63,250 nt of DNA from a virus (IMGVR_UViG_3300048905_000034:1-63250), one strand, 5' to 3'; shown: positions 1 to 63,250, numbered from the stretch's first letter. Program-made: numbers and translations. The notes: generated by a model not told the origin, from the letters alone.

Positions 1-127
1 GCCTTCAGCGGCAGGGGCAGGTCGCGGTGGGTCAGGCCGTTCTTGTCGAACGACCGCCCGTCGCCCGAGGGGACACCTTCGGGGGCAAGGACGCCGTACC
101 AAGGAACAGGTTCCAGCACCTCTTCCT
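1..127. repeat. Terminal duplication; identical to 63124-63250 (circular-assembly style overlap)
   Basis: Read directly: gccttcagcggcagggg...ccagcacctcttcct at both window ends; implies a 63,123-bp circular or permuted unit. Confidence 0.95.
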
Positions 128-917
128 CGGGGATCGTCTGCGGCTCGTCGTCGACTTCCTCCTCGGGATCGGGGAGGGCCGGATCGGGAGTGGTGGGGTC
201 TTCCTTGGCTGCTGCCGTGACGGACACGGATGGGTCCGTTGGCACCTGCGAGGGAGTGTCGGACCCATCCGATGCGGACGACTCTACCTGCTCCTCAGCC
301 GGGGCGGCAGTAAATTCTTCGGTCTTCACCTTGAACTCCTCAAGCATGGTCGGGCGTGCAACGCACCGGCAGTTGATCCAGATTTCGGGCGGGCCGACCG
401 GCTGCCCCGGATAGAGCAATTCGTAGCCGCCGACATCGAACGGCAGGCCGGATGGCACCGTCTCACCGTTGGTTTCCACATGCACCGGGCGGACGTTACT
501 GTCCTTCATGGTGACCCATTCGAGTCCGACAGCGCCGTCGGGGTCGGATGTGGTCGCGGCCTCGGTCCCGGCGTTGACCGAGTAAGTGGACAGCCACTTG
601 GTCATGCGCTCAGTCTGCGCGTCCCGCTGCTCGGCGGACATCTGCTTGGTCTTGCCAAGGGCTTCCCGCAGTTCCCGCTCGAACTCGGCGCGCATGTCGT
701 CGATGATCGGGTTCCACTGGTCGATTTCCTCGCGGGCCGTTTCGTCGAAGATGTCCAGCGCCATCGCAACGATCTGATCCTCCCACCGGGGGATGCCGAC
801 GCGGGCTAGGGAGGTGCGAACCACTTCCATGAACCGCTCGTCCGAGCGTTCGAGGATGCGGCGGCGTTCAGCGGCGAAGGTATCGACGTCGATGGTGAAG
901 CGGTCTGCGCGGATCAT
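1..917 (-). CDS. N-terminal MuF/SPP1-gp7-like head morphogenesis part of a MuF-protease fusion gene; continues in frame across the junction into 61698..63250
   Basis: ATG 917-915 overlaps the portal stop (ATGA). My translation MIRADRFTIDVDTF...VRPVHVETNG...PPEIWINCRCV has the MuF-type H...NCRC motif. 917-119=798 is divisible by 3, so it is in frame with the ORF starting at 63242. Absent from the track because there is no in-window stop. Confidence 0.8.
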   Translation of the reverse strand, partial: MIRADRFTIDVDTFAAERRRILERSDERFMEVVRTSLARVGIPRWEDQIVAMALDIFDETAREEIDQWNPIIDDMRAEFERELREALGKTKQMSAEQRDAQTERMTKWLSTYSVNAGTEAATTSDPDGAVGLEWVTMKDSNVRPVHVETNGETVPSGLPFDVGGYELLYPGQPVGPPEIWINCRCVARPTMLEEFKVKTEEFTAAPAEEQVESSASDGSDTPSQVPTDPSVSVTAAAKEDPTTPDPALPDPEEEVDDEPQTIPEEEVLEPVPWYGVLAPEGVPSGDGRSFDKNGLTHRDLPLPLK

Positions 918-2767
918 GCGGGAACCCTCTCTCCGGCCACGGTCATCTGGGAGGACATGAAGAGGGTGAAGGTGCCGAAGGTGTGCGGGGTCTGCTCCAC
1001 CAGCAACTGCGTGCAGTAGCTCTCCAGCACACCCTCCAGCCATATCGCCGGGATGCGGTGGCGTTCAGCGATAGCCGCGACGTGTGTCCACGCATCGTCC
1101 AGTAGGAACTCGGTGTCCTCGCTCCTGACGAACTTGTAGATGTCCACCGCCGCGCACGTCGGCTTCACCTGCATCTTGTTCTTCAGCTTGTTCCCGGCGC
1201 GCTCCAGCGCCCGCACCACGACCTGCTCGCAGGCGGCGATCAGGGCGGCGGCGCGGTTCTCGGGGAAGGCGGACGGGACATTGCCCCGGTCCCGGGCATC
1301 CCGGCGACGGTCGGAGACTTCCGGGTCGGGGATGCCGGTCTGAGGGTGTTCCTCCAGTGACGGCGTGGGCCTGCCCTCCGTGCCTGACGGTTGGTCGACC
1401 AACTGCGGGGTCACGTCGAGCTTGACCCCGAGGGCCTTCAGCGCCGCCTCGACCAGTTCCGGGGTGGTGGACCCGGAGGCAACCTTGCGCAGGTAGAACG
1501 CGATCCGGTCGTCGTCCTTCTGAGCGTCGTCGTCGCTGAAGCCGGTTTCGCGGCGCAGCGATTCGCCGTTGAGTTCGCCCCGGTCGTACAGTTCCAGCGC
1601 TTCCTTGGAACGGTTCGGGCGCAGGCGCATCTCGGAGGTGTCAGCCCCGATGGAGAAGGAGCGCAGCGTCGGGCCGGGGACATCATCGGCGAGCAGTGGG
1701 CGCAGGTAGCCCTGTGCGAGCGCGGTGGTGATGAGCTTCAGCAGCGGCTCAGCATGGGCCTTGATCGTGGATTCGTCGGCAGCCCACGCGCTCCAGTGGT
1801 TGGACTCGGACAGGCCCTGCAGGACTTCGGGCGGGATGTCCAGACCGAGGGCCAACCGGCGGATGGCTTCGTTGCGCAGCGCGATGGCCTGCTCGTCCAG
1901 TTGGGTCCAGAACGTCAGGTGCTTGATCGAGGCAATGGCTTCGGCGGGTGCCTTGATGACGATGGGCACCAGCGCGGAAGCGTCCTCGCGGTTCTGGATG
2001 GAGGTCTGCATGGCCTCGGCCAGCACCCGCATGAGGTCTTCGGCGTCGTTCGCCACCCTCTGCTCCTGCCCCTCGACGGGGGGAGGGGCAGGGAACGTCA
2101 TCTCGGACGGGACCAGCAGGATGCCAGCACCGGCAAGGCGGGAGTCGATCTGCGCCGCGACGTGCTGGGTGAGGCCGTAGATTTCGCCGAGGATCGGCAG
2201 GACCGCCTGCGCCGGGGAGGTGGCCTTCCAAGGCTTCTCGGGGTCCGGTCGCCAGATGCGGATGACGAGGACATCCTCGGGGTCCACGTCGAGGTCCTTG
2301 TTGTTGACCCGCCACTTGCCGCCATCGACCTTGGTGATCTGCGCGGGAGTGGCAATCTCCCAAATGTCGTCCTCGTCCCCGAACTCGTCAGGGTTCGGGT
2401 AGGAGACGACGTAGAGTTCCCCGGCGACGGTCATATGGATGCCGATTTGCCGAAGCATCTCTGCGCGACCATCGTCGTCGGAGAACAGCGACTCCATAAT
2501 CTCGACGGCGGGGCCGGTCTTCACCTGCTTCCGCTTGCCCGCCTTCTTTACCGAGGCGAACAGAACGGCCTTGGACAGCATCGCGCCGACGAAATCGCAC
2601 GAGTATCGGAACTCGCCGATGATGTGATACATCCGCCATGCTTCGTTCTGCCAAGCGATGGACTCGGCTATCCGGTGGTAGCTCTTTTGTCCGCTCTTGC
2701 CGATGCGCGCCGCCGAGGCGACCAGTGAGTTAGCCTGCGGAGTCTCGTCCCTGCGGGTGCGTGCCAT
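914..2767 (-). CDS. portal protein
   Basis: 617-aa ORF in the canonical TerL - portal - MuF order; size typical of portals. Confidence 0.85.
   Translation of the reverse strand: MARTRRDETPQANSLVASAARIGKSGQKSYHRIAESIAWQNEAWRMYHIIGEFRYSCDFVGAMLSKAVLFASVKKAGKRKQVKTGPAVEIMESLFSDDDGRAEMLRQIGIHMTVAGELYVVSYPNPDEFGDEDDIWEIATPAQITKVDGGKWRVNNKDLDVDPEDVLVIRIWRPDPEKPWKATSPAQAVLPILGEIYGLTQHVAAQIDSRLAGAGILLVPSEMTFPAPPPVEGQEQRVANDAEDLMRVLAEAMQTSIQNREDASALVPIVIKAPAEAIASIKHLTFWTQLDEQAIALRNEAIRRLALGLDIPPEVLQGLSESNHWSAWAADESTIKAHAEPLLKLITTALAQGYLRPLLADDVPGPTLRSFSIGADTSEMRLRPNRSKEALELYDRGELNGESLRRETGFSDDDAQKDDDRIAFYLRKVASGSTTPELVEAALKALGVKLDVTPQLVDQPSGTEGRPTPSLEEHPQTGIPDPEVSDRRRDARDRGNVPSAFPENRAAALIAACEQVVVRALERAGNKLKNKMQVKPTCAAVDIYKFVRSEDTEFLLDDAWTHVAAIAERHRIPAIWLEGVLESYCTQLLVEQTPHTFGTFTLFMSSQMTVAGERVPA
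1387..1406. repeat. PAL20 palindrome copy (degenerate left arm)
   Basis: acggttggtcgaccaactgc; inside the portal CDS, read as QLVDQP in a low-complexity C-terminal segment. Confidence 0.7.
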
Positions 2768-2772
2768 GGTGT

Positions 2773-3081
2773 CTATTCCCCATCATTCATAACTACGATT
2801 GCCGCTAGGTAGGAGACTGCCATCCAGCCGTTGAACAGCCACCACGAAATGTGCAGGTTGGAGAGCCACCCCCACAGAATCACCGGAGCGGCGATCCAGA
2901 TGGCCATACAGAAGGGGCAGTGGAACAGCGTCGACCATGGCCCATCGTCCGTTAGCGCATCCCACTTGGAGCGCACCCAAGCCGACGGCGGAAAGCTGTC
3001 CTGCGTCAGAAGGCGGGTCATCCGCGCCGTCGAGACAGTACCGACGATGACAGCACATATCACGACAACAATCTCCACCAT
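2773..3081 (-). CDS. small integral membrane protein (DUF1360-like)
   Basis: 102 aa, three hydrophobic helices, CPFC motif; sits between TerL and portal. Confidence 0.6.
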   Translation of the reverse strand: MVEIVVVICAVIVGTVSTARMTRLLTQDSFPPSAWVRSKWDALTDDGPWSTLFHCPFCMAIWIAAPVILWGWLSNLHISWWLFNGWMAVSYLAAIVVMNDGE

Positions 3082-3083
3082 GA

Positions 3084-4556
3084 CTACGAGAGTACCGGCT
3101 GTGTCGGCGATTGCTCTGCTGAGCCGCGTGGCTTGTAACCGAAAATGCTCCCAAGGGTGCCCATGGCAGTTGGTCGCCCAACTGCCTTGAGGGTCCGCCC
3201 GGAGGGAACGGCGATCTGCGCGGGGCCGGTGCGGGTGTTCAGCGCGGTAATTCCGTGGACCAGCGCATCCACCCGGTCAGGGGAATCGTTCATGTCCGGC
3301 ACCCATTCGGTCATCTGCGTCTCCAGATCGACGAAGGCCCGGACGTGATGAACCCGCTCCTGCTCGTACAGGCCGACGATGGGTTCAGCGCGGAGCACCT
3401 TGCCGCGCCGTGAATGCACAAGGTCCACCTTCCCGTCCTTGCGCTTGGTCCGCAGGGTGGAGAGAACCATCTCGCCGCCGTAGTTCTTCTCGGCCACGAT
3501 CAGGTCCGCCTCATACAGGTCGTACGCCCGCCAAGCCTCGGAGGCCCAGCCGTCCGGGGTGTAATGCCCGGAGTGGTCCGCGAGGACGTAGAAGTGATCG
3601 CCCATGATGCCGATGACGACGATGCCGGTTTCGTCACGCTTCTTCGAGGACGTGCCAGCGGGGTCGATAGCGACCACGATCCGGTCCATGTCCTTGTGGG
3701 TGATTTCGGCGATGGGCCGGTTGTCCTCGATCATGTTCCACTTCCACAGCGCACCCACGATGTCGTCGAGGACTTCGCCGTAGAGTTCCTGCAGGCCGAG
3801 CCGGGTGCCCTCGTACTTGGACAGGACCACGTTGCGGAACGTCGGCGCGAGGTTGTCCATATTGGCGTAGGTGGAGACAGTGACGGCCCGGGTGGTCGGG
3901 GTGTCGATCAGTTCCTTCAGCCACTTGGTCGGCAGCGGCGTGGTGGTGCATAGGACCAATGGCCTCTTGCCGAAGCGCAGGCCCATCATCATCATGTCCC
4001 AGACGGATTCGATCATCGGGTAGTGAGCAGGCTCATCGAGCCAGACCGCACCGTGGTTAGGCCCACGGAGGCGGTCAGGTTCCTCGCCGGTAAAGGCTTG
4101 GATTCGGTGCTCGTTGTAGCGGCCCTTGCCCGGGACGGTGATCCTGCGCTTGGACGGCTCCCACAGCGCGTTGACCTTCGCCTTCTCGAACGCCGCAAGC
4201 AGGCCGGACTCGCCTTCAACCATGATGTCGCGGACGTGGGGGAGGGTCGGGCCGATGATCGAGGTGTAGGCGATGGACTCGGACATCTTGCGAATCCACT
4301 CCGAGCCGCAGCGGGTCTTGCCCGAACCACGCCCGCCCTTCTGCAGCCACACCAGCCAGTCCGGGTCCTCCGGGGGCCACTGGTCACCACGGGCATGGCG
4401 GTAGTCGTACTCGTCGTGGGGCTGGCCGTCGCAGGAGCGACCCTTCTTGCAGTACCAGACCTGCCGGTCCTTCTCCATGGTCGCAACCATGGAGAGCAGC
4501 TTCTCCTTGGACTTCGGGTCCCAGTTCTTCCACTCGTCCAGATTCAGTTCCGGCAT
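3084..4556 (-). CDS. terL: terminase large subunit
   Basis: Walker A GGRGSGKT, Walker B VWLDE, RNaseH-like nuclease half (AIDPAGT...). Start moved to ATG 4556 (RBS GGAAAGG, no overlap); the track start 4592 is the alternative. Confidence 0.9.
   Translation of the reverse strand: MPELNLDEWKNWDPKSKEKLLSMVATMEKDRQVWYCKKGRSCDGQPHDEYDYRHARGDQWPPEDPDWLVWLQKGGRGSGKTRCGSEWIRKMSESIAYTSIIGPTLPHVRDIMVEGESGLLAAFEKAKVNALWEPSKRRITVPGKGRYNEHRIQAFTGEEPDRLRGPNHGAVWLDEPAHYPMIESVWDMMMMGLRFGKRPLVLCTTTPLPTKWLKELIDTPTTRAVTVSTYANMDNLAPTFRNVVLSKYEGTRLGLQELYGEVLDDIVGALWKWNMIEDNRPIAEITHKDMDRIVVAIDPAGTSSKKRDETGIVVIGIMGDHFYVLADHSGHYTPDGWASEAWRAYDLYEADLIVAEKNYGGEMVLSTLRTKRKDGKVDLVHSRRGKVLRAEPIVGLYEQERVHHVRAFVDLETQMTEWVPDMNDSPDRVDALVHGITALNTRTGPAQIAVPSGRTLKAVGRPTAMGTLGSIFGYKPRGSAEQSPTQPVLS
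3166..3185. repeat. PAL20 copy; G-variant on the transcribed (-) strand
   Basis: gcagttggtcgcccaactgc on +, which is the reverse complement of gcagttgggcgaccaactgc; inside the TerL 3' end, read as AVGRPTA. Confidence 0.9.
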
Positions 4557-4561
4557 CGCAC

Positions 4562-4948
4562 TTACCTTTCCGAGAGTTCTTGGATCAGCCAAGCGCCGTA
4601 GCCTTGGCCGTTGTCAGGAGCGGGGGATTGGGGCACGCGCTCGTCGACACCCTTTGGCTTTGCAGTGTGACGGATGACCTCAGTGAAAGCCATGCCGAGG
4701 TCCTTGGCGATGAACGCAGCAGTGGCGCGGCGGACGTAGCCGGTCATCCCGATGCCCCGGCGCTTGGCCGCTTCATCGAGGAGCACCCGGAACGGAACGT
4801 CGTAGTAAATCCACGTCCCGCTCTTTCGGGACTTCGCTGGCTTCTTCCCCGACTGCCGTGCCCGCACCCGGGCGATGGCGTTCTCCATCCAGAGCGGGTC
4901 CTCGTCCCGGTCGGACCACCCCTGCAGATCAGGGTTGTAGTTGACCAT
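4562..4948 (-). CDS. hypothetical protein, 128 aa (possible ribbon-helix-helix fold)
   Basis: ATG 4948 overlaps the TerS stop by 1 nt (TGATG); beta-strand then helices pattern IYYDVPFRVLLDEAAKRRGI. Confidence 0.55.
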   Translation of the reverse strand: MVNYNPDLQGWSDRDEDPLWMENAIARVRARQSGKKPAKSRKSGTWIYYDVPFRVLLDEAAKRRGIGMTGYVRRATAAFIAKDLGMAFTEVIRHTAKPKGVDERVPQSPAPDNGQGYGAWLIQELSER

Positions 4949-5484
4949 CAGTCCACAACATCCGCGTCGATGATGTCCGCTTCCTCGGCCTCGGGTTCCT
5001 TCCGGGCCAGCGCCATCATGTGCGCGACGTACTGCTGAAGGTGCTCGTCGGTCGGGGTGATCGCAACCTGTGTCGGTGCGTCCACGCCCCACAGGCGCAT
5101 GATGCGGTCGGTGATCGCCAGCGCCCTCGCGTTGTAGGCGAGGTGGTCCGGGTCCTTGGTATCCACGGCCTTGCCCATGGTGGACTGAAGCAGGCGGTTG
5201 AGCCGTTTGTCGGCGAGCACCCTTTGCTGGTCCCGGTCCTCGGGGGAGTCGGCGGACGCGGCCAGCACCCGCTCGACTGCCAGCCGTGCCCGGGTGGCAG
5301 ATGCGTAGCCGAGGGCCTTGGCGATGTTGGTGTACGAGGTGCCCGCGATACGCAGGGCCAGCGCGGACTCGGCCTTGGTCGCCGTCTCGGACATCACGAG
5401 GTCCGCGTTCGGGTCTTCCCCGGCTTCGATGGCCTTGGCGAACGCCTTGGCCCCGGTCATGATCCGGGCTTCCTTGTCACCCAT
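4948..5484 (-). CDS. terS: terminase small subunit
   Basis: 178 aa, HTH LRIAGTSYTNIAKALGYASATRA; lies upstream of TerL with one 128-aa ORF (4562..4948) between them. Confidence 0.7.
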   Translation of the reverse strand: MGDKEARIMTGAKAFAKAIEAGEDPNADLVMSETATKAESALALRIAGTSYTNIAKALGYASATRARLAVERVLAASADSPEDRDQQRVLADKRLNRLLQSTMGKAVDTKDPDHLAYNARALAITDRIMRLWGVDAPTQVAITPTDEHLQQYVAHMMALARKEPEAEEADIIDADVVD

Positions 5485-5632
5485 TGAGGTCGCTCCATAC
5501 GACGCAGCCGCAGAGACGGTAGTCGACGATCTTCTCCACCATCGACTGGGTCCGTACGTCCCAGACGACTGCTATTTCGGTGCGGCTGAGGGGGCCATGC
5601 CAGTTCTCTTCGGTTTCATGCCAGCCGTTCAC
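5477..5632 (-). CDS. hypothetical protein, 51 aa
   Basis: GTG 5632 overlaps the ParB-like stop (GTGA); the stop overlaps the TerS start; below the track's 60-aa cutoff. Confidence 0.45.
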   Translation of the reverse strand: MNGWHETEENWHGPLSRTEIAVVWDVRTQSMVEKIVDYRLCGCVVWSDLNG

Positions 5633-6210: not shown

Positions 6211-6341
6211 CGGTACTCTCCTACGAACAGGCAGCGCTTACAGTGCCAGTATTTTGCCGGGGCGGACGGGTGGGGCGACTTCTCGTGGAAGCCGAGGGCG
6301 CACAGGATGGGCCGCTCGTACCACTTGGTCAGTTGCTTCAC
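6207..6341 (-). CDS. hypothetical small Cys/His protein, 44 aa
   Basis: GTG 6341 overlaps the upstream stop; the stop overlaps the ParB-like ATG; ...CALGFH...HCKRC. Confidence 0.45.
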   Translation of the reverse strand: MKQLTKWYERPILCALGFHEKSPHPSAPAKYWHCKRCLFVGEYR

Positions 6342-6511: not shown

Positions 6512-6731
6512 TGTTCTCCTTCGGCAGTTGGTCGCCCAACTGCTGCTTTTCGTGCCTGCCCGGGACGCGCAGGGATTGCGCGTAGGTGCTGATTCTGGAG
6601 GACAACGCCCATGCCGCATTGGCCCCGGCGTAGTCCCCACGGTTGCTGCGGTTGTTGCCGACACGCTCGACCTTCCGCACCAGCCCCATCAGGCGGCGGT
6701 AGCGCGGCAGGTTCTCATCCGGTACGTGCAT
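6504..6731 (-). CDS. hypothetical protein, 75 aa
   Basis: ATG 6731 with RBS GAGGAA; its 3' end reads through PAL20 as QLGDQL. Confidence 0.5.
   Translation of the reverse strand: MHVPDENLPRYRRLMGLVRKVERVGNNRSNRGDYAGANAAWALSSRISTYAQSLRVPGRHEKQQLGDQLPKENNA
6524..6543. repeat. PAL20 copy; G-variant on the transcribed (-) strand
   Basis: gcagttggtcgcccaactgc on +; 13 nt upstream (sense) of ATG 6511. Confidence 0.9.
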
Positions 6732-7072: not shown

Positions 7073-7081
7073 TTTCTTGGT

Positions 7082-8665: not shown

Positions 8666-8672
8666 CCACGTG

Positions 8673-8695
8673 GCAGTTGGTCGGGCAGTTGGTCG
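8673..8695. repeat. two tandem (direct) PAL20 half-sites
   Basis: gcagttggtcg g gcagttggtcg, 12-bp register, 8 bp upstream of the -35 of the leftward promoter. Confidence 0.85.
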
Positions 8696-9017: not shown

Positions 9018-9037
9018 GCAGTTGGGCGACCAACTGC
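9018..9037. repeat. PAL20 copy, G-variant
   Basis: gcagttgggcgaccaactgc; 19 nt upstream of GTG 9057. Confidence 0.9.
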
Positions 9038-9903: not shown

Positions 9904-9923
9904 GCCGTTGGTCGACCAACTCC
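9904..9923. repeat. PAL20 copy (2 mismatches)
   Basis: gccgttggtcgaccaactcc in the 9840-10215 non-coding gap. Confidence 0.7.
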
Positions 9924-10482: not shown

Positions 10483-10502
10483 GCGGTTGGTCGACCAACC
10501 GC
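10483..10502. repeat. PAL20 copy with a compensatory arm change
   Basis: gcggttggtcgaccaaccgc: A>G at position 3 and T>C at position 18 keep a perfect palindrome. Confidence 0.85.
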
Positions 10503-11227: not shown

Positions 11228-11247
11228 GCAGTTGGGCGACCAACTGC
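11228..11247. repeat. PAL20 copy, G-variant, helix extended to 26 bp
   Basis: ccagcagttgggcgaccaactgctgg (11225-11250). Confidence 0.9.
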
Positions 11248-11617: not shown

Positions 11618-11637
11618 GCAGTTGGGCGACCAACTGC
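11618..11637. repeat. PAL20 copy, G-variant, helix extended to 28 bp
   Basis: gctggcagttgggcgaccaactgccagc (11614-11641). Confidence 0.9.
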
Positions 11638-12332: not shown

Positions 12333-12445
12333 TTCTCTTCCACGAGGGCCGTCACTGGAAAGTCACCGGCAGCACATGGGTGCTGCTCACCAACCAAACC
12401 ACCACCGACCAGTTGGTCGACCAACTGCGGGAAGCAGGGGAATGA
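12329..12445 (+). CDS. hypothetical protein, 38 aa
   Basis: GTG overlaps the stop (GTGA); reads PAL20 as QLVDQL. Confidence 0.4.
   Translation: MILFHEGRHWKVTGSTWVLLTNQTTTDQLVDQLREAGE
12409..12428. repeat. PAL20 copy (1 mismatch)
   Basis: ccagttggtcgaccaactgc; 19 nt before ATG 12447. Confidence 0.85.
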
Positions 12446-12446: not shown

Positions 12447-12731
12447 ATGTCCGTCTCACTCATCAAGGCCAAGGCCATAGCCCGTACCCCGGAGGCATAC
12501 AGCACCGAGGAACTGGACGACGCGCTGACCCGCATCGTCGAGGATGACCGCCTCTCGGAGGCGCAGGTCACCCGCATGCAGGCGAGGATCGACCCGGTCC
12601 TGCGTGCCCGTATCGCCCAGCGCCAGTCACGCATAGCATCAGCCGTAGTGTGGCCGGACATTCCCCGGTCACCCGCAGTTGGGCGACCAACTGCCGAGTC
12701 ATGCGAACAGAGGATACCCAGTGACCATTGA
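12447..12731 (+). CDS. hypothetical protein, 94 aa
   Basis: Track ORF; RBS GGGGAA; its 3' end reads PAL20 as AVGRPTA. Confidence 0.6.
   Translation: MSVSLIKAKAIARTPEAYSTEELDDALTRIVEDDRLSEAQVTRMQARIDPVLRARIAQRQSRIASAVVWPDIPRSPAVGRPTAESCEQRIPSDH
12675..12694. repeat. PAL20 copy, G-variant
   Basis: gcagttgggcgaccaactgc; 27 nt before GTG 12721. Confidence 0.9.
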
Positions 12732-13630: not shown

Positions 13631-13650
13631 GCAGTTGGGCGACCAACTGC
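13631..13650. repeat. PAL20 copy, G-variant, helix extended to 28 bp
   Basis: gccagcagttgggcgaccaactgctggc (13627-13654). Confidence 0.9.
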
Positions 13651-14310: not shown

Positions 14311-14330
14311 GCAGTTGGGCGACCAACTGC
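14311..14330. repeat. PAL20 copy, G-variant
   Basis: Starts 3 nt after stop 14307. Confidence 0.9.
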
Positions 14331-15195: not shown

Positions 15196-15611
15196 CCGAG
15201 TGGTGGGACAGTGCGGACGCCAGCAGGTACGGCCCGCGCTACTACGACCCCAAGGGCAGGCCCATGAGCATGCGCCGATGGGCGCAGTCGATGGGCAATG
15301 AACGGCACGTAGGCGAGAGCATCCTCCGCATACGTGGCCGGTGGTACCGGGTGTCCACCGTCTGGCTGGGGCTGGACCACAGCTTCTTCGGTGGCCCGCC
15401 GCTGATCTTCGAGACGATGATCTTCGGCGGCGACCGCGACACGGACCTCATGATGTGGCGCTACTCCACCGCAGACGAGGCCATGCGTGGGCACGTGCGT
15501 GCCGTGCGTTTTCTAAAAAGGAACGTGCGCGAGGCACGGCATCCACAACTTATCCACAACGGTCGGAAACCGACAGCAGTTGGTCGACCAACCGCCAACA
15601 GAAAGAAGTAA
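15192..15611 (+). CDS. hypothetical protein, 139 aa, with a LIHNGRKP tail followed by translated PAL20
   Basis: Internal ATG of the track ORF 14790; STVWLGLDHSFFGGPPLIFETMIFGG core. Confidence 0.6.
   Translation: MTEWWDSADASRYGPRYYDPKGRPMSMRRWAQSMGNERHVGESILRIRGRWYRVSTVWLGLDHSFFGGPPLIFETMIFGGDRDTDLMMWRYSTADEAMRGHVRAVRFLKRNVREARHPQLIHNGRKPTAVGRPTANRKK
15576..15595. repeat. PAL20 copy (1 mismatch)
   Basis: gcagttggtcgaccaaccgc; 19 nt before ATG 15615. Confidence 0.85.
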
Positions 15612-16246: not shown

Positions 16247-16753
16247 ATGATCTGCGGCAACGAAACCACCATGTTCGGCGGCGTAAGCACCTGCACCCGG
16301 GATGTCCGGCACCGGGGTGACCACCAGACCATGCCCATCGACGGGCGCATTACCCAGTGGAGTGTGAGTGGCGGCAGTCAGTGGTGGGTCACGGACCCAC
16401 GGCACCTTGGCTGGCAGGTCATCACGTGTCCCGAGTGTGGCGTGCGTCACATACCGGAGTCCAACAGGGTCACGAAAGGTGGGACCTCCTGCTTCCACTG
16501 TTGCTTCTGGGCGCACCGGTTGGCGCAGTACCTGAACGGCGAAGTCATGGTCATCGAAGGGACGTGCTACTCATGGGGCGCTGGGCATGGATTCGGTGGA
16601 CGGGAGTTCACCATCACCATGGAGGACGGAACCACCACTACCCGGCACGGCCTTTGGTGTGGCGGGGTCATCCCATGGGAATACCGGGAGGCGATGCCCG
16701 ACAACGCTACGTTCGGGAGTTGGTCGACCAACTGCGAGGAGGTCATGCCATGA
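16247..16753 (+). CDS. Cys-rich (zinc-ribbon) protein, 168 aa
   Basis: CPECG...CFHCC; its 3' end reads PAL20 as SWSTNC. Confidence 0.55.
   Translation: MICGNETTMFGGVSTCTRDVRHRGDHQTMPIDGRITQWSVSGGSQWWVTDPRHLGWQVITCPECGVRHIPESNRVTKGGTSCFHCCFWAHRLAQYLNGEVMVIEGTCYSWGAGHGFGGREFTITMEDGTTTTRHGLWCGGVIPWEYREAMPDNATFGSWSTNCEEVMP
16716..16735. repeat. PAL20 copy (1 mismatch)
   Basis: ggagttggtcgaccaactgc; 14 nt before ATG 16750. Confidence 0.85.
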
Positions 16754-18486: not shown

Positions 18487-18704
18487 CAGAAGTTGGTCGA
18501 CCAACTGCAAAGCCCAAACCGCCGAGGGTGGCGCTATGGGTCACGGAAAAAGAACTGCGCATCATCGCCGAGAAGTTCGAGGGGTTCCGTGGATCGCTGG
18601 CTGATGCGATCAGCGAAGCCCACATCGAGGCGAGGAAGGCTCGGACCCAGCACAACAGGGCGCTGCGGCAGTACCGGCACGCAAGAAGGGATATGGCGTC
18701 ATGA
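18483..18704 (+). CDS. hypothetical protein, 73 aa (alternative GTG 18528)
   Basis: GTG overlaps the stop (GTGA); its 5' end reads PAL20 as EVGRPTA. Confidence 0.5.
   Translation: MTEVGRPTAKPKPPRVALWVTEKELRIIAEKFEGFRGSLADAISEAHIEARKARTQHNRALRQYRHARRDMAS
18489..18508. repeat. PAL20 copy (1 mismatch)
   Basis: gaagttggtcgaccaactgc. Confidence 0.85.
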
Positions 18705-19794: not shown

Positions 19795-20218
19795 TGCAGT
19801 TGGGCGACCAACTGCTGTGGGCTTCGTTGTCGCGCTGATACTGAGTGCTTCGTTGGTGATGGGGTCAGGCACGGTAGCGTCCGCCCGTCCCCCCACCCCC
19901 GAGCAAGCCATCGAGGCGCTGGCCCCCGGTCAGCACGTGGTCCTCGGGAATGTGGTGGTGGCGCGTACGGTGCATGGCTTGGTGGTCGACGTGTTGGACC
20001 AGAGTCCGACCACTGCCTCGTTCTGCGGGGTGGCGCTGGCCTCGGCCATCTTCGGGATCGGGGCCGGGATTCTGGGTGTGATCGCTGCATCCACCGGCGG
20101 CTCGGGCACCGTCATGATCGCCGGGTATTTGCTGACCGGCGCGCAGGTCGGCGTCCTAGCTGGACTATCCGGTAGCTACGCCGCATTGCTGGCGTGGATC
20201 AGCCGCTTCATCTGTTGA
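19781..20218 (+). CDS. secreted/membrane protein, 145 aa
   Basis: RBS AAGGAGGAAG; signal-like N-terminus whose n-region is PAL20 read as AVGRPTA; C-terminal TM helices. Confidence 0.6.
   Translation: MVMRSAVGRPTAVGFVVALILSASLVMGSGTVASARPPTPEQAIEALAPGQHVVLGNVVVARTVHGLVVDVLDQSPTTASFCGVALASAIFGIGAGILGVIAASTGGSGTVMIAGYLLTGAQVGVLAGLSGSYAALLAWISRFIC
19796..19815. repeat. PAL20 copy, G-variant
   Basis: Starts 2 nt after stop 19794. Confidence 0.9.
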
Positions 20219-20559: not shown

Positions 20560-20579
20560 GCAGTTGGGCGACCAACTGC
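20560..20579. repeat. PAL20 copy, G-variant
   Basis: 31 nt before ATG 20611. Confidence 0.9.
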
Positions 20580-22631: not shown

Positions 22632-22651
22632 ACAGTTGGTCGACCAACTGC
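22632..22651. repeat. PAL20 copy (1 mismatch)
   Basis: acagttggtcgaccaactgc. Confidence 0.85.
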
Positions 22652-23174: not shown

Positions 23175-23503
23175 GCGACGGACCGGACGAGAAGGGCAAC
23201 TGGGCCATGCTGGCACCGCAGGTTCCCGACCGTGCCCCGAGTGTGGAGTCAGTAGAGGATGGGACCGAGGGCGGGTACACCGCCTCTCCTGCGGGCGATC
23301 ATCCGGTGTTCTCCCAGTGGACGCACTACAACCCGACGCTCGTGGAGGCGCTGGCCGCGCACGGTGCGGTACCTGAGCAGGAGGTGGTCGACCATCTGAG
23401 CGCACTGTTCAGTGAGGCGACGACCGACTCTCGTGTACCCCCGCTTGAGCGGCAGGCTGAGGCCGTGCGTCGGTACGTCGAAGAGTACGTGGCGGTGGGC
23501 TAA
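23171..23503 (+). CDS. hypothetical acidic protein, 110 aa
   Basis: Track ORF; ATGA overlap. Confidence 0.6.
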   Translation: MSDGPDEKGNWAMLAPQVPDRAPSVESVEDGTEGGYTASPAGDHPVFSQWTHYNPTLVEALAAHGAVPEQEVVDHLSALFSEATTDSRVPPLERQAEAVRRYVEEYVAVG

Positions 23504-25069: not shown

Positions 25070-25089
25070 CCAGTTGGTCGACCAACTCC
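25070..25089. repeat. PAL20 copy (2 mismatches)
   Basis: ccagttggtcgaccaactcc immediately after the ssb stop. Confidence 0.8.
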
Positions 25090-25660: not shown

Positions 25661-26413
25661 GTGTCATGGTTCAAGGTAGACGACCGGCTTCATTCGTCCC
25701 GCAAGCTCCTGAAAATCCCCCGCCGGTACCGGCTGGCATGCCTCGGCCTGTGGACAATGGCCGGGTCATGGAGTGCCGATCAGGAGACGGACGGGCACAT
25801 CCCCGACCACATGATCGAGGAGTGGGGAGCCTCCAAAACCCAAGTCGAATGGCTACTGAAGTCAGGTTTGTGGGAGTCCATCCCCGACGAAGATCAAAGT
25901 TACCCGGGGGTAACCGAGGCCGAAGTCCGATTTAGAAATTGGGCCGAGTACCAGCCCACGAAGGCAAAGAATGAACATACCCGAGAGAAAAACCGCGAGA
26001 AGCTGCGGCATTGGAGGGAACGTAACCGGGTTACAGATGAAGATGTAACCGGGTTACAGGATGGTTCGGACCCGGTTAGTAACCCCGCCCCCGTCCCGTC
26101 CCGTCCCGACCCGTCCCGTCCCGTCCATAAAGACTCGTCCAAAACGGACGAGGAGTTCGACCAGTGGTACTCCGGCTACCCCAAGAAGGAAGCCAAGGCT
26201 GCTGCGAAGAAAGCTTTCGCCACAGCGCGGAAGAATGTGGACTTTGATACACTTATGGCTGGGCTTGAGAGGTATGTGAAGTCAGTGAAGGGCAAAGACC
26301 GGCAGTACATCGCACTCCCTGCGTCATGGCTGAATGCCGGACGTTGGGAAGATGAGTTGGTCGCCCAACTGCCGGGGCCAAAGAATGACCCGTACTGGTG
26401 GGCTAACCAGTGA
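25661..26413 (+). CDS. replication initiator / replisome-organizer-like protein (DnaD-like C-terminus)
   Basis: GTG start; 250 aa; directly upstream of and overlapping the helicase gene; C-terminal KKAF..A...........PASWLNAGRWED pattern. Confidence 0.6.
   Translation: MSWFKVDDRLHSSRKLLKIPRRYRLACLGLWTMAGSWSADQETDGHIPDHMIEEWGASKTQVEWLLKSGLWESIPDEDQSYPGVTEAEVRFRNWAEYQPTKAKNEHTREKNREKLRHWRERNRVTDEDVTGLQDGSDPVSNPAPVPSRPDPSRPVHKDSSKTDEEFDQWYSGYPKKEAKAAAKKAFATARKNVDFDTLMAGLERYVKSVKGKDRQYIALPASWLNAGRWEDELVAQLPGPKNDPYWWANQ
25899..26084. repeat. cluster of GTAAC/GTTAC dyads inside the initiator gene (candidate origin)
   Basis: gttacccgggggtaac 25899-25914; gtaaccgggttac 26022-26034 and 26045-26057; ggttagtaacc 26074-26084; then (GTCCC)n 26092-26126. 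Confidence 0.55.
26353..26372. repeat. PAL20 copy, opposite-polarity (C) variant, degenerate
   Basis: tgagttggtcgcccaactgc; in the CDS, read as ELVAQL; 38 nt before GTG 26410. Confidence 0.75.
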
Positions 26414-27677: not shown

Positions 27678-27697
27678 GCAGTTGGGCGACCAACTGC
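27678..27697. repeat. PAL20 copy, G-variant
   Basis: 14 nt after stop 27663, 17 nt before ATG 27715. Confidence 0.9.
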
Positions 27698-29415: not shown

Positions 29416-29852
29416 AGGTGCCGAGCCGGGGACCCAACAGCCCGTTCTCCAGTGGAGGCCGGACGCTGTTGGCCCGGACGTGCATCGCCTGCGGGAAGCT
29501 CGCGGACGGTGAGAGCTTCCCAACCCTGAACCGGGGCACCCCCAACGAGGCCCGCCGTAAGGTGTGCCACGACTGCTTCAACGCACGAAAGAAGCGGGAC
29601 CGGGAGGAGCGGGGAATTGGTCGCCCAACTGCCCGCCCGCCGGAGAACCTGCAGACCAGCGCGTACCGGCAGTGGTCGGTGGAGGATGACCAACGGATGC
29701 GCGACCTCATAGCTTCGGGCACTCCCTACGAGGACATCGCGGTGGCGCTGGGCCGGTCCCTGCGTGCCGTCTACAAGCGCCGCAGCATCCTTGGCATCAG
29801 CCGGGTCCGCCCGAGCCATAGGGTCCGCCAGCCGTGGAGGATCGAGCAATGA
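29412..29852 (+). CDS. zinc-ribbon plus Myb/SANT-like DNA-binding protein, 146 aa
   Basis: CIACG...CHDC N-terminal; WSVEDDQRMRDLIASGTPYEDIAVALGRSLRAVYKR C-terminal; PAL20 lies in the linker. Confidence 0.5.
   Translation: MKVPSRGPNSPFSSGGRTLLARTCIACGKLADGESFPTLNRGTPNEARRKVCHDCFNARKKRDREERGIGRPTARPPENLQTSAYRQWSVEDDQRMRDLIASGTPYEDIAVALGRSLRAVYKRRSILGISRVRPSHRVRQPWRIEQ
29613..29632. repeat. PAL20 copy, opposite-polarity (C) variant, degenerate
   Basis: ggaattggtcgcccaactgc read as IGRPTA. Confidence 0.7.
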
Positions 29853-31319: not shown

Positions 31320-31338
31320 CAGTTGGTCGACCAACTGC
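31319..31338. repeat. PAL20 copy, perfect
   Basis: gcagttggtcgaccaactgc overlapping stop TAG 31317-31319. Confidence 0.95.
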
Positions 31339-33628: not shown

Positions 33629-33648
33629 GCAGACGGTCGACCAACTGC
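33629..33648. repeat. PAL20 copy (2 mismatches)
   Basis: gcagacggtcgaccaactgc, 5 nt after stop 33624. Confidence 0.75.
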
Positions 33649-36018: not shown

Positions 36019-36037
36019 CAGTTGGTCGACCAACTGC
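36018..36037. repeat. PAL20 copy, perfect
   Basis: Overlaps the rusA stop. Confidence 0.95.
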
Positions 36038-37255: not shown

Positions 37256-37275
37256 GCAGTTGGTCGACCAACTGC
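37256..37275. repeat. PAL20 copy, perfect
   Basis: Intergenic between 37287 and 37175. Confidence 0.95.
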
Positions 37276-44800: not shown

Positions 44801-47800
44801 CTACATCCGTGAGTTGGTCGAGAAAGCATCGGACAGCGCATCGGTAACGGTCCCGGCGATGATCCAAGGGTCGGTGGCCTGAGTGTGGACCTGCACTGCA
44901 CCTTCGGCGATGTTGAACGCGCGGGAGGTGGAATCGGCAGTTGGTCGACCAACTGCCGAGAATGCTCCGCCAACCGTAACCTCAGAAGTGGGCACGGTGA
45001 ACGCCCCGAGGGTGCCCAGCGCGTTGTGTACGCTGTCGCGGTTCGCCTTCAGCCCATCTGCCAGCCCCTGCGCCGCATCCGCGCCAGCCACGTACATGAC
45101 CGACTTGGACAGGTCGGCTGTGACGCTGTCCGTGACCAGCGCCGTGATGGTCTGCAGGGTGTTCAGCAGCGGGTCCATCTTGGATTCCAGTCCCCGCTGG
45201 AGGCCACCCATGATGGCTTCACCGGCAGGCACCAGCAGCTTCGCGTCGTAGTCCAGCGGACCCTTGTTCGCCCTGATCCAAGCCGCGATGCCGCCGACGA
45301 AGTCCGTCACCGCGCCCCACGAGGACCGCAGACCGCTCAGGAAGCCGCCCATGATGCTTGAACCCGCACCCCAGAGCAGGTACGACAGTCCGCCAAGCGC
45401 ACCAGCGATCCGGCCCGGGAGTCCAGAGATGTAGCCCATGATGTCGTTGGCCTTGTTCATCACCAAGCTGACGAAGTTCATGAACGCACCGGACAGGGAG
45501 TTCCACATCTGCGCCATGGCGCTCTGGACATTCCCGATCATGGACGTGCCCATGCCTTGAACGTCGCCCTTCATATTGCCGGACTTGTCCCGAACCGTAC
45601 CGGTGAACTGGTTCCACTTGTCGCTGAGGGTGCCACCAACGGTGCCCCAGAAGCCGCTCCAGTTCCGGGACACATCGCTTCCGAAGTTGCTGATGTTGTT
45701 GCGGATTTCCCCGGCCTTCGTGGAGGTGGTGTTCGTGAACTCCCCCCACTTCTGGCCCAGCGTGTTGCCCACGTCGCCCCAGAATCCGTTCCAGCCGTTC
45801 GTTACGTCCCCTGCCCAGCCCTCGATGCCGGACTTGATTTCCCCGGCCTTGCCGCTGACGGTTGTCTTGAACTCTTCCCACTTCGTGGACAGCGTCGTAC
45901 CGGTGTCGGTCCAGAACTGGGACCAGCCGGTCTGGAATCCCTCCCACGCCGAAGTCACGCCCGTCTTCAGTTCCTCGAACTTGGTGCTGACCGTGGTCTT
46001 GAACTCTTCCCACTTGGTCCCAAGGGTCGTGCCAACGTCCGTCCAGAAGGTAGACCAGCCGGTCTTGAACTCCTCCCACTTACCAGCAAGGCCGTCCACC
46101 ACTTCTTGGAACTTGGTGGTGACGGTGGTCTTGATTTCCTCCCACTTCGCCCCGACCGAGGCAGCGAAGTCGCCGAAGCCGTTGAGGAAGCCCGCGACAA
46201 TATCGCCAGCTATGCCGAACATCAGGGTGGACGGCGACTGGATGCCGAAGAACCTCTTCATGTCCTCGACCCAGCCGGTGAAGCCCTGCCCGATCTTCTC
46301 CCATGCGTTGACATCCTTGCCGGTCAGGCCCTGAATGAAGCCGTTCCACAGGTCAGCGCCGATCTGCGCCCAGTCAAGGTTTGCCACCCAGTCCTTGATG
46401 GGCTTCCAGACGTTGGTTTCCAGCCAGTTGTTGACCGTCGCGTTGATGCCTTCAGCCCACTGGTTGACATCGCCCATCATGCCGCCGAAGCCGCCCCAGA
46501 AGCTCTGCCAGAACGCCTGTCCGTTGGTGTCGCTGCGGTTGCTGCTCTCCCCGCCGCCGCCGCTGGTGAGCCAGTCGGACACAGCCTTCCACGCGGTATC
46601 CCACGCCTCGCGGATGGGCCTGAAGATGGTGTTCTCGAACCAGTCGTTGACGGTCTGGTTGATGTCGCCGATGTTGCCCTCAGACCAGAAGCTGTTCCAG
46701 AGGGCCGGGAAATTGACCTGACCATTGCCATCGCCACGGTTGCTGCTCTCATGGTCACCGCCGCTCTTGAACCAGTCGGTCACGGAGGTCATCGCCGTGT
46801 TCCACGCATCACGTACGGGCTTGAACACGTTGTTCTCAAACCAGTCATTGACGGTCTTGTTGATGGACTCAACGTTCGCGTCACCAAGGTGCAGGACATC
46901 GTTGGTGATCCAGTTCATGATGGCAGGGCCGAGGCCGTAGTCCTTCGTATCGCTCTTGAAGGACTCGGGGATGGTGGTCTGCCACCACTCGTTGATGCGG
47001 CGCATGTCGTTTTCCCAGCCGGTGCGGATGGGCTTGAAGATGCTGTCCTCGAACCACTTGTTCACGACGGCGTCGAGGTTGTCGATCTTCCTGCCCTGAT
47101 CGTCGAAGAACTCCTTGATGCCGTTGGACAGGTCGATGTTGGCCGACTGGAGGCTGGGCAGGATGTTGTCGAACAGGTTGCGGAAAGCCTCCACGACCCA
47201 GTGGTCAACCTTGTCGGAGAGGTCGTTCATCTCCGGGTTGCTGCCGGTGAACAGTTCGACGGTCTTCCGAATCTGGTCCTTGATGTTCTTGTCCAGCGCC
47301 TTGAACATCGCCTGCGATGTCGGATCGTCGTAGTTGATCGAACCCATGCCCTGCGTCAGGGCGGCTCCGAGGCCGGGCGCGAGCGTGTCGACGAGCTTCT
47401 TCGCTGCGATGCCCAAGCCGTAGCTGAGGTCGCCGACCAGAATCTCCTTCATCACCTCGCCCCACTTGATCTTGTTCGTCTTGCCGAAGGAGTCCAGCTT
47501 CCTCTGCTGCTCGTCGAGGTTCGCCTTCGCCTGCTCCATGCTGAAGGAACCAAAGAGGATTCCCCAGTCCTCCGGGCGGGCCTCCAACTTGGCGATCCGC
47601 ATGGCGGCGGCGAGGGAGTCGAAGCCCTTGCCGACCTTCTCCACGAGGGACTGAAGCGTCGGGGTGAACAGGGCGAACAGGCTCCCCAGCGGGGCCAGCA
47701 ATTCGGTGGCGAACTGCACCGCCTTCGGCAGGGTCTCCGTGGCGAGGGTCTTGATGGTCGGGCCGAGGTCCTCGACCATCTTGGCGATCACCGGCCCGGC

Positions 47801-51152: not shown

Positions 51153-51172
51153 GCAGTTGGTCGACCAACTGC
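51153..51172. repeat. PAL20 copy, perfect
   Basis: Intergenic; 16 nt before the RBS of the chaperone gene. Confidence 0.95.
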
Positions 51173-55300: not shown

Positions 55301-55320
55301 GCAGTTGGTCGACCAACTGC
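55301..55320. repeat. PAL20 copy, perfect
   Basis: Intergenic; 8 nt before the lysin RBS. Confidence 0.95.
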
Positions 55321-61697: not shown

Positions 61698-63250
61698 TTA
61701 CTTCCCTTCGATGGTGGCGAATGCGCTCTTGGCCCGAGTGACCTGAAGCTGCCGGAACTTGGCCCTGACCTCGTTGAACCGATCCAGCGAACTCGTGGGA
61801 ATCTCCACGGTGTCCCCGGAATCCTGCCCATCGTGCAACGGAATCGCAGCGGCAACCAGCGAAAGCTGCTCCCCGCCGGAGGCCACCAGCATCGAGGGGC
61901 GGGGGATCGGGAATCCCGGGACGTTGACCGCGAGGGCGGCGATCAGTTCCATTTCATCCTGACCGGGGCGGACCTGCCTCCAGTCCCCGGAGATTGCAGC
62001 CGCCCGCAGTGCGTGGACCTGCTCATCGCTGATGTTGGGGCGCAGGACCCCGGCTACCCAAATGCCGTGCTCATCCTCACCTGCGGTCACGTCAGCGACG
62101 GCGGTGGAGGTCGAGTCGTAGTGGGAGACTGCGGCGCGGAGGCGTGCCCGACCGTCAGCGTGTCCGCCTCCGAGGGTGATCTGGCCGACCGCAACGGGTC
62201 CGAGGTCCGTCTGCACTTCGCCGGTCAGGAAGAAGGCGTAGTTCGTGGACGAGTGCGGCGCGGTGGTGCATTCGCCTTCCTCCTCCCCGATGGGCAGGCC
62301 GATGTGGCAGGTGTCCCATGTGGCTACGTGGCCGTACACCCGCCCGTCCTCCGCGACCGTGAACGGCGTCGGGCCGGTCAGTTCCGGGTTCTTGAAGTAG
62401 CCCCCGGGAAGCAATGCGGGTTCTACTGCTGCTGTCAGTGCCATTTCAACCGTTCCTCCTGAGTGGTGTCGTCCGCCGCCTTCACGCCCCGGCCATACGC
62501 CGAGCGCCCGGTAGTGCAGGTTGGCACACAGGCCCGCCAGCCACTGGGGATTCTGGACGTACTTGGCAAGCTGCAGGCGGCAGCGGTTGAAGTCGCCCGG
62601 GACGCCCCAAGCGATCTTCAACGCGCCCCGGCCATCCACCCAGTAGGACGTGATCCTGTGCGTGGGCTTGGGTTCGGTGATCCACCCGGGGCCGTCCATC
62701 GTCTTGATGGGCGGGATGTCGTAAACGTCCGTCTCAGAGGCGGCTGTTCCACGTGAAACATCGTCAGGTGAATTTGGTGAATCTTGTGAATCTCCCGGCA
62801 GTTGGTCGACCAACTGCTGATCCGCCCAGCGGCCCAGCCCGACGAAGGCTTCCGCGAAGGCGGGGATGGCGCAGATTGTGGCTGCGCAGATTCGCCCGGT
62901 GGCCGACATCGAGGAACCGTCCTCGGACATCGTCGCCTGCATGTCGTCGATGTCGACGGACACCCCGCTCCACATGCCTTCGGCCAGCATGCGGACAGTC
63001 TCGTAGGCTGCCTCCGACTGATCGAACACGCCCTCGCCCTTGACGAGGCCATCCTCGCGGAAGATGTTGTCGATGCGGCCAACGATGACCGAACCCTTGT
63101 GGCCCTCGTCATCCACGAACATCGCCTTCAGCGGCAGGGGCAGGTCGCGGTGGGTCAGGCCGTTCTTGTCGAACGACCGCCCGTCGCCCGAGGGGACACC
63201 TTCGGGGGCAAGGACGCCGTACCAAGGAACAGGTTCCAGCACCTCTTCCT
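61698..63250 (-). CDS. C-terminal part of the MuF-protease fusion: HK97-type (S78-like) prohead protease domain plus a further ~330-aa domain
   Basis: ...GHKGSVIVGRIDNI...GVSVDID...ICAIPAFAEA; open at the window end and in frame with 1..917; total 780 aa on the circular map. Confidence 0.75.
   Translation of the reverse strand, partial: EEVLEPVPWYGVLAPEGVPSGDGRSFDKNGLTHRDLPLPLKAMFVDDEGHKGSVIVGRIDNIFREDGLVKGEGVFDQSEAAYETVRMLAEGMWSGVSVDIDDMQATMSEDGSSMSATGRICAATICAIPAFAEAFVGLGRWADQQLVDQLPGDSQDSPNSPDDVSRGTAASETDVYDIPPIKTMDGPGWITEPKPTHRITSYWVDGRGALKIAWGVPGDFNRCRLQLAKYVQNPQWLAGLCANLHYRALGVWPGREGGGRHHSGGTVEMALTAAVEPALLPGGYFKNPELTGPTPFTVAEDGRVYGHVATWDTCHIGLPIGEEEGECTTAPHSSTNYAFFLTGEVQTDLGPVAVGQITLGGGHADGRARLRAAVSHYDSTSTAVADVTAGEDEHGIWVAGVLRPNISDEQVHALRAAAISGDWRQVRPGQDEMELIAALAVNVPGFPIPRPSMLVASGGEQLSLVAAAIPLHDGQDSGDTVEIPTSSLDRFNEVRAKFRQLQVTRAKSAFATIEGK
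62798..62817. repeat. PAL20 copy, perfect
   Basis: Inside the polyprotein, read as QLVDQL, in the linker after the S78-like domain. Confidence 0.95.
63124..63250. repeat. Terminal duplication (copy of 1-127)
   Basis: Identical by direct comparison. Confidence 0.95.

Follow-up and report, generated by a model that had tools for sequence, protein, structure and literature searches.

A lineage-specific palindrome repeated across an Arthrobacter-type phage genome and within its conserved structural genes

Introduction

Multi-copy dyad repeats of actinobacteriophages have been without an assigned function for a decade. Cluster O mycobacteriophages (Corndog) carry a 17-bp dyad-symmetric repeat, TGTTCGG-N3-CCGAACA, with more than 30 copies to a genome (34 are given), about one third of them in coding DNA; no function was assigned to it, and its authors predicted a dimeric DNA-binding protein (PMC4351075). 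Cluster A stoperators are dozens of short sites spread genome-wide, mostly in short intergenic gaps, and are thought to stop transcription elongation (PMC4351075); the stoperator motif co-evolves with a phage protein (PMC6550527). Here we analyse a palindrome that recurs throughout a viral sequence of 63,250 nucleotides (IMGVR_UViG_3300048905_000034:1-63250; this whole stretch is called the window below) and that lies both between genes and inside conserved structural genes.

The conserved inverted repeats (CIRs) of the Streptomyces phage phiC31 are 17 bp long, occupy many intergenic positions and are bound by a phage regulator. On plasmid RK2, the ParB-family protein KorB reads 12 operator sites (OB) and controls many operons. 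Rickettsia palindromic elements (RPEs) are insertions of 100-150 bp, seen as indels at scattered positions. Bacterial repetitive extragenic palindromic (REP) elements have a uniform sequence within any one genome and are associated with a RAYT transposase and with copies in host genomes. The C(UUCG)G hairpins of phage T4 and the RNase III sites of T7 are intercistronic tetraloop hairpins whose stems vary between sites.

Results

Copies of the palindrome

The palindrome has the consensus CAGTTGG-KCGM-CCAACTG, in which 7-bp inverted arms enclose a 4-bp centre, and 29 copies with at most two mismatches over the 18 bp are present in the window (Table 1). A 16-bp core has 33 matches at up to three mismatches where 0.25 would be expected, and none of 100 shuffles reached 33, which bears out the initial annotation of a real, multi-copy element. 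The arms are invariant and the centre is variable, although in the window the centres are confined to KCGM. Most copies have a G before and a C after the core, and the 18-bp core with its flanks extends to no more than 30 bp. Lone half-sites are not enriched elsewhere in the window.

Although coding sequence makes up about 90% of this genome (G+C content 63%), 17 of the 29 copies fall between genes (P = 4e-10), so that the copies in coding DNA (10-12 of the 29) are a minority. The early region holds 21 copies (0.76 per kb) and the late region eight (0.23 per kb). Most copies stand at a gene boundary or after a promoter, and the usual order is stop codon, palindrome, C/A-rich spacer, ribosome-binding site and start codon. 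For the copies at 10484 and 13632 a 5' leader is the more likely setting, as each is followed by an in-frame ATG that has a ribosome-binding site. A scan of bacterial genomes yielded no multi-copy host family and no prophage, only single chance matches; a metagenome scan with a degenerate pattern likewise gave mostly single chance matches, and only four loci were related to the window.

Lineage-specific arms in related phages

The ends of the window are an exact 127-bp repeat (1-127 and 63124-63250), and the window is thus a complete circular phage assembly with a true length of 63,123 bp. The structural genes run leftward (1-8204 and 37287-63250) and the early operon rightward (9057-36018). 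The phage is of Arthrobacter type and appears lytic. Its nearest cultured relatives are the Arthrobacter phages Tank, AWGoat, Rizwana and SilentRX (portal identity 53-55%), and contigs from IMG/VR and JGI are much nearer (portal identity 73-95%). L-numbers denote the related sequences compared, L220 and L221 being AWGoat. A search for relatives in viral contigs by way of the helicase found none.

Related phages carry palindromes with arms of their own. Tank has 29 copies of GGGTCGG-N4-CCGACCC, a repeat that the 2017 Arthrobacter phage paper does not mention, and AWGoat has 32 perfect copies of GGTCGG-N4-CCGACC, with the same arms as Tank and widely variable loops, plus one-mismatch forms. The arms are TGTTGG..CCAACA in L012 and L013, TATCGG..CCGATA in L015 and CAGACGG..CCGTCTG in L019, and L021 and L023 carry TGACGA-CCGG-TCGTCA. 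Close relatives with portals 82-86% identical carry different arms. Sites are either present or absent between relatives, so a pooled comparison of palindrome and flank identity is uninformative.

Changes on both sides were found in six of seven arm pairs, or nine of ten pairs with the flanks included (67 distinct sites), and the covariation score was 0.46 as against 0.19 in shuffles (0 of 500 reached 0.46). This covariation does not separate DNA from RNA, because an inverted repeat bound as a duplex gives the same result. Complementarity of the arms turns out to be dispensable. Hybrid sites of the form CAGACGG..CCAACTG occur in the window, L006, L019 and L222, and CAGGTGG..CCAACTG, an asymmetric form with a G.A mismatch, recurs. 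The sites of L223 and L224 keep CAG..GG.CGA.CC..CTG, but positions 4-5 and 14-15 in them are free to vary and are often unpaired.

AWGoat also has a second class of about 14 sites with one arm changed, GGGTCGG-N4-CCGATCC (for example within 60966-65435), mostly in one orientation relative to transcription. In the window, the hairpin after the major capsid gene (59675-59709, minus strand) has Tank-type arms, GGGGGTCGG..CCGACCCCC, unlike the window's own; the same is seen in L222, and this may be an ancestral site that stayed unchanged while the rest changed.

Copies inside genes

The initial annotation emphasized that the palindrome is free of stop codons in all frames, that it is translated within structural genes in different frames, and that it behaves like an RPE-like insertion tolerated in coding DNA. 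Either strand does yield QLVDQL, (A)VGRPT(A) and SWSTNC in its three frames. The lack of stop codons is also real, but a random 18-bp palindrome at this G+C content is stop-free with P = 0.62, which makes the property unremarkable. Translated copies are found as listed in the portal, large terminase subunit (TerL), tape measure, MuF-protease and replication initiator genes and in several small genes; the gene assignment is uncertain for 12410 and 18490, and the copy placed at 29613 in the linker of a helix-turn-helix (HTH) protein is there, in a form that may have decayed.

That the conservation lies in the DNA follows from the use of all three frames. Protein-level conservation, the alternative, was not borne out, since portal and TerL relatives without the palindrome carry unrelated peptides at its place. 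The portal open reading frame (ORF) is collinear with the Tank portal (608/617 aa), and its copy falls in a hypervariable linker flanked by the conserved blocks ELVEAALKxLGV and EGRPxPS. This segment is unrelated and equal in length in L006, L014 and L016, which use the same palindrome elsewhere, and is 2-3 aa shorter in others. The portal copy is the least stable one: L003 has a perfect copy, the 92% relative L222 a decayed one and others none. In TerL, the Pfam nuclease domain ends at aa 437 and the conserved motif LGSxFGYKPR lies downstream of the copy; the site is also present in L222, L014, L016 and L020 and absent in L011 and L017, and the position of AVGRPT is taken by GEPLQT-like peptides of equal length in L019, L012 and L015. 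Alignment of the portal and TerL with their homologues revealed no indel of 6-9 aa at either copy.

The tape-measure and MuF-protease copies are fixed in position. Where the tape measure of the window reads AVGRPTA, that of Tank reads GVGYPTL and that of AWGoat GIGVPTP, each encoded by the phage's own palindrome in the same columns and frame, 122-137 nt before the stop codon. In the MuF-protease, the column after the GRWAD block reads, in the same frame, QLVDQL, QVVDQL, QVGDQL, VLDDQQ, VSGDRQ or QTVDQL according to the arms of the lineage, and every window-like lineage has its own arms there. Distant relatives have GGGTCGG, TGTTGG, TATCGG or CAGACGG at the tape-measure and MuF-protease sites. 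Lineage-specific arms at the same columns and in the same frame indicate that these two coding sites are old and positionally fixed, and that they change in step with the intergenic sites of their genome.

In the portal, TerL, tape measure, MuF-protease and replication initiator (25661-26413, PHROG 2447), the alignment with homologues extends to either side of the copy, and the small genes 6504-6731 and 12447-12731 have homologues in relatives. Copies in small genes are mostly in the last codons, with one in codons 6-12. Judged from the alignments and the limits of Pfam domains, the coded segments are probably variable linkers and tails. Searches of PDB sequences with the portal, TerL and the small terminase subunit (TerS) gave no matches.

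These results bear on whether the palindrome is a small selfish element of the RPE or MITE (miniature inverted-repeat transposable element) kind that inserts anywhere and is tolerated in frame. The absence of stop codons, the translation of copies in about 10-12 genes and three frames, and the presence or absence of the portal copy among close relatives would all fit such an element. Yet the portal and TerL copies are not accompanied by an indel, coding copies keep their position in lineages with different arms, the sites are strongly enriched between genes and linked to promoters, and at 18-22 bp they are far shorter than RPEs; no such family was found in bacterial genomes, and no transposase or RAYT-type gene was noticed among the proteins scanned, a scan that was not exhaustive. 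We consider a selfish element highly improbable. The insertion reading of the initial annotation is wrong, and its nucleotide-level reading is right.

Promoters, a half-site repeat and neighbouring hairpins

All five predicted SigA-like early promoters, two of them perfect or nearly so, have a copy at a fixed distance (9019, 10484, 13632, 20561 and 22633). The -35 element lies 64-69 nt and the -10 element 42-46 nt upstream of the copy, and the copy is about 30 nt downstream of the promoter. Short reading frames that start ATGCCCTC and have their own ribosome-binding sites, described as lying between promoter and palindrome, occur at 13614-13631 and 22658-22678, and one of them terminates in TAA directly at the palindrome; similar ATGCC strings are found upstream of the copies at 9905 and 10484.

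The half-site also occurs as a direct repeat beside the leftward promoter of the ribbon-helix-helix (RHH) gene 8424-8630. This repeat, GGCAGTTGGTCG in tandem (8672..8695), is exact in L016 (two copies) and L222 (one copy), where the flanks differ, and it is incapable of forming a hairpin. The surrounding 8204-9057 is a divergent control region of lower G+C content, in which the RHH gene (minus strand) is leaderless, with a -10 element TATAAT at 8637-8642. Operator-like inverted repeats TTCATAC..GTATGAA lie at 8630-8668, and the counterpart in L222 is CTATAC..GTATAG.

A terminator scan called none of the copies, and no T-run or U-tract was found at any copy, though the hairpin is present. Generic long terminator-like hairpins with stems of 15-16 bp are located after the major tail gene (57150-57189, minus strand), after the Rad52-like gene (31350-31392) and at the end of the early operon (36042-36083), the last two adjoining palindromes of the family. 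In L222, a separate terminator-like hairpin stands beside the palindrome after the major tail gene. Since separate hairpins stand beside copies, the palindrome is not simply the terminator. L222 has both a site and a generic hairpin downstream of the major tail gene, and on these grounds the idea that in the window the hairpin had taken the place of the site was rejected.

A proposed recognition site and its candidate reader

We put at about even the chances that the palindrome is a lineage-specific recognition site read by a sequence-specific trans-acting factor, most likely a dimeric phage DNA-binding protein. Sequence-specific recognition is suggested by invariant arms around a variable centre, by hybrid and non-complementary arms, by the conserved direct repeat of half-sites and by the ordinary hairpins that adjoin copies. 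In its favour, too, are the lineage-specific arms at orthologous sites, the fixed distance of copies from all five early promoters, the lack of enrichment of lone half-sites and the lack of a multi-copy family in host-type genomes. The factor would read two 7-bp half-sites (CAGnnGG) about one helical turn apart, and the sites would form a genome-wide operator network placed after early promoters and at gene boundaries of the early operon, with few in the late operon. We infer that the bound protein would block or modulate elongation from the early promoters; it may also act on the leftward promoter, and could help to set the timing of early and late expression, much like Cluster A stoperators. 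Where genes are long or leave no gap between them, the site would lie inside coding DNA, which is possible because the palindrome has no stop codon in any frame, and it would be tolerated only in variable linkers and tails.

A candidate for the reader is the product of the first early gene (9057-9839), which directly follows the first promoter and site and has the same place in Tank (gp105) and AWGoat (gp104). Its AlphaFold model contains a helix (residues 88-95), a turn, a second helix (99-114) and a long coiled coil, with pLDDT above 90 over residues 41-110 (means of 10-residue blocks). The residues that start the second helix are I/V-S/A/G-T in phages with CAGnnGG arms and K/Q-N-T in two phages with GGGTCGG arms; the homologues in L015 and L012 have Y-A-T and R-S-S. 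With its predicted helix-turn-helix, this protein is a lead rather than a finding. The ParB-like protein and the two RHH proteins were rejected as the specificity factor because they do not follow arm type, and neither does TerS. Identity to the RHH protein 8424-8630 is 93% in L017, which has no half-site repeat in its control region, and 48% in L016, which has kept the repeat.

Several observations weigh against a DNA-binding protein as the reader of the palindrome. The binding protein is still only a candidate: a fold search with the product of 9057-9839 gave non-significant matches to HTH domains (best E = 1.1), and the variation of its residues is confounded with phylogeny. Sites inside the late operon would hinder late transcription as well. 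A classical immunity repressor is unlikely, given that the window proteins scanned included no integrase and that the Tank and AWGoat annotations list none. Of the 23 asymmetric Tank sites, 22 have a GNRA centre on the sense strand, with P ~1e-3 even against a 2:1 null drawn from base composition (A>T skew). In AWGoat, a C-to-T variant of the arm that keeps G.U pairing on the sense strand outnumbers its mirror form 11:3. Some copies have complementary flanks of differing sequence that extend the stem to 11-13 bp, with one compensated change in L222.

The last three observations fit an RNA stem-loop of 7-13 bp with a tetraloop, which would lie between cistrons or in 5' leaders and stabilise or punctuate polycistronic mRNA as an exonuclease barrier, processing site or attenuator, with a hairpin-specific RNA-binding protein or gene conversion keeping the sequence uniform. 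The predicted hairpins (-13 to -29 kcal/mol), the layout between stop codon and ribosome-binding site, and the extended stems and short U-rich tails of the Tank and AWGoat copies after capsid and tail genes also fit this explanation. However, invariant arms with variable loops are the reverse of what a purely structural element would show, hybrid or mismatched arms are common in relatives, and the conserved direct repeat cannot fold. There is no U-tract, the terminator scan called no site, generic hairpins separately adjoin three copies, and an Rfam scan of the window matched no family. In the window itself, GNRA centres on the sense strand (11 of 13) are not significant given base composition (P = 0.14 against the 2:1 null). 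An RNA stem-loop seems to us unlikely as the primary function, although it is the principal competing explanation and could act as a second layer.

The density of sites at the boundaries of small early genes, relative to the late region, raises the alternative that they are boundary sequences that promote homologous recombination or gene conversion and owe their uniformity to it, shuffling small early genes as modules and serving regulation secondarily, along the lines proposed for lambdoid boundary sequences and T4-type cassettes of promoter and stem-loop. Among the genes of the phage are those for a Rad52-like annealing protein and an exonuclease, close relatives differ by gain and loss of sites, and the hybrid arms look like products of exchange between alleles. 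An 18-bp sequence is, however, very short for homologous exchange, and the spacing from promoters, the old tape-measure and MuF-protease sites and the conserved half-site repeat would be left unexplained. We regard this alternative as improbable.

A protein-read site might also serve as a fast-diverging, genome-wide identity code by which a phage protein recognises DNA or transcripts as its own and not as coming from the host or a co-infecting relative, a speculation to which we give little credence. If it were true, close relatives with different arms would be mutually incompatible, much as in heteroimmunity but in an apparently lytic phage, and at fixed positions the protein sequence would be seen to give way to a regulatory code.

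Table 1. Sites of the palindrome family in the window
Feature	Position	Strand	Remarks
Portal gene 914-2767	1388..1405	-	CGGTTGGTCGACCAACTG, 1 mismatch; codons 455-460, QLVDQP
TerL gene 3084-4556, C-terminal tail	3167..3184	-	CAGTTGGTCGCCCAACTG; 83 nt before stop, AVGRPTA; sense centre GCGA
Last codons of 75-aa gene 6504-6731	6525..6542	-	Orthologous site in L019 is CAGACGGCCGACCGTCTG
Tandem direct half-site repeat	8672..8695	+	GGCAGTTGGTCG x2, just upstream of -35, leftward promoter of RHH gene 8424-8630
5' leader of first early gene 9057-9839	9019..9036	+	~30 nt after promoter, TTGACA at 8955
Non-coding stretch 9839-10216	9905..9922	+	2 mismatches; extra half-site and centre at 9991-10008
5' leader after promoter	10484..10501	+	Compensated pair CGG...CCG; gene start 10539
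Intergenic	11229..11246	+	Flanks ggccag/ctggcc give 30-bp palindrome; -28.7 kcal/mol
Intergenic	11619..11636	+	Complementary flanks ggctgg/ccagcc; L222 orthologue gggtgg/ccaccc, compensated change
Probably 3' end of 38-aa ORF 12329-12445	12410..12427	+	Gene model uncertain
3' end of gene 12447-12731	12676..12693	+	AVGRPTA frame
After promoter	13632..13649	+	~30 nt past TTGACA-18-TAGAAT (13566-13595); main gene start probably 13686
Intergenic	14312..14329	+	Between stop codon and ribosome-binding site of gene 14364
Last codons of gene ending 15611	15577..15594	+	Long ORF
Last codons of gene 16247-16753	16717..16734	+	SWSTNC frame; long ORF
Very start of ORF 18483-18704, or its leader	18490..18507	+	Uncertain
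Codons 6-12 of membrane-protein gene 19781-20218	19797..19814	+	Strong ribosome-binding site
Leader of gene 20611	20561..20578	+	After promoter-like site 20496-20524
After perfect promoter	22633..22650	+	~35 nt past TTGACA-17-TATAAT (22564-22592); orthologous site kept in L129
Inside gene 23171-23503	23381..23398	+	Degenerate copy GAGGTGGTCGACCATCTG; identical in L129, flanks differ
Intergenic, directly after SSB gene	25071..25088	+	
3' end of replication initiator gene 25661-26413	26354..26371	+	ELVAQL; 38 nt before DnaB gene
Intergenic, after DnaB gene	27679..27696	+	
Linker of HTH protein 29397-29852	29614..29631	+	3 mismatches; may be decayed site
Directly after stop of Rad52-like gene	31320..31337	+	Followed by separate long hairpin 31350-31392
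Intergenic hybrid copy	33630..33647	+	CAGACGG..CCAACTG
End of rightward operon	36019..36036	+	Followed by separate terminator-like hairpin 36042-36083
Intergenic, leftward operon	37257..37274	-	Perfect copy in homologous region of L001
Tape measure gene 44801-50524	44938..44955	-	137 nt before stop, AVGRPTA
Intergenic, before gene 50674-51123	51154..51171	-	
Intergenic, after GDPD-domain gene	55302..55319	-	
MuF-protease gene (~780 aa, crosses window junction)	62799..62816	-	QLVDQL, directly after conserved GRWAD block

Other features of the genome

The 380-bp non-coding gap at 9839-10216 contains a C-rich stretch (9923-9990, cccccctcccccctcccccctgtcccccgtgtcccc) that could be an origin and that is followed at 9991 by the extra half-site with its centre. 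A second, shorter repeat family is also present: the early genes at 9057, 11663, 13686 and 15615 start ATGGCTACCAACC (M-A-T-N), and the string GGCTACCAACCGAA recurs in leaders at 10514, 11209, 12979, 13658 and 22953.

An Lsr2-like DNA-binding domain protein is encoded in the early operon (20940-21752), an SNase-like nuclease upstream of the packaging genes (7082-7453), and a GDPD-domain protein (55344-56861) where relatives annotate an endolysin. The product of 4948-5484, called RNase E both by PHROG 645 and in the Tank record, was considered as an RNA-processing partner and rejected; its homologue is the terminase small subunit in the newer AWGoat annotation, which its position fits.

Discussion

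The phage group to which the window belongs provides a comparative handle on multi-copy dyad repeats, in that many relatives have different arms at the same positions, the distance from promoters is fixed and a half-site repeat is conserved. At three coding positions, the protein sequence follows the nucleotide motif. The cultured phages Tank and AWGoat carry about 30 sites each, so that binding, transcript mapping and arm-swap genetics are directly testable. There is a warning here for gene annotators too, as such motifs force short peptides (VGxPT, QLVDQL) onto structural proteins.

Among the known systems, nut/boxB antitermination sites are RNA hairpins, few to a genome, that follow early promoters closely and are recognised by a lineage-specific protein; the position of the palindrome about 30 nt after five promoters would fit them, while about 30 copies, variable loops and arms that do not pair in relatives would not. 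The intercistronic hairpins of T4 and T7 and the REP elements are, like the palindrome, stable hairpins between cistrons, but stems that vary from site to site, as in T4 and T7, are not seen here. As for the host copies and RAYT transposase of REP elements, matches in bacterial genomes are single chance matches, and no RAYT gene was seen among the proteins scanned, which were not an exhaustive set. RPEs share with the palindrome the in-frame translation of palindromic DNA in conserved genes, but the core here is 18 bp, indels are absent, and positions are conserved or at gene boundaries. The KorB/OB system is a comparable multi-site palindromic network; here, the phage has a ParB-like protein without a link to arm type. 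The phiC31 CIRs are likewise multi-site inverted repeats in an actinophage, but phiC31 is temperate and its repressor is known. Stoperators have a similar distribution but are asymmetric and 13-14 bp long, follow the direction of transcription and serve as binding sites for the immunity repressor of temperate phages, whereas the sites described here are palindromic with only a weak strand bias in the centre, and neither an integrase nor a repressor was found among the scanned proteins.

The closest likeness is to the Cluster O repeat. Both have 7-bp arms that end in GG/CC around a short spacer of variable sequence, and both number some 30 copies or more, of which roughly one third are coding; both are denser in the non-structural arm of genomes that have a gene with a ParB-like domain and, in the window among the proteins scanned, no integrase. 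The spacer is 3 bp in Cluster O and 4 bp here, the arms there are TGTTCGG, although the relative L012 uses TGTTGG, and the palindrome does not have the Cluster O sequence TGTTCGGNNNCCGAACA. As both arms and spacer differ, the likeness is one of kind and the two are not the same family of sites. The Cluster O paper reports neither lineage-specific arms at orthologous coding positions nor linkage to promoters (PMC4351075). New here are the lineage-specific arms at orthologous positions, including positions inside conserved structural genes, the fixed distance of sites from early promoters with a half-site repeat conserved beside a promoter, and the dispensability of arm complementarity. With a recurrence well above chance, the palindrome is a variant of a type of phage repeat that has been described before but not explained.

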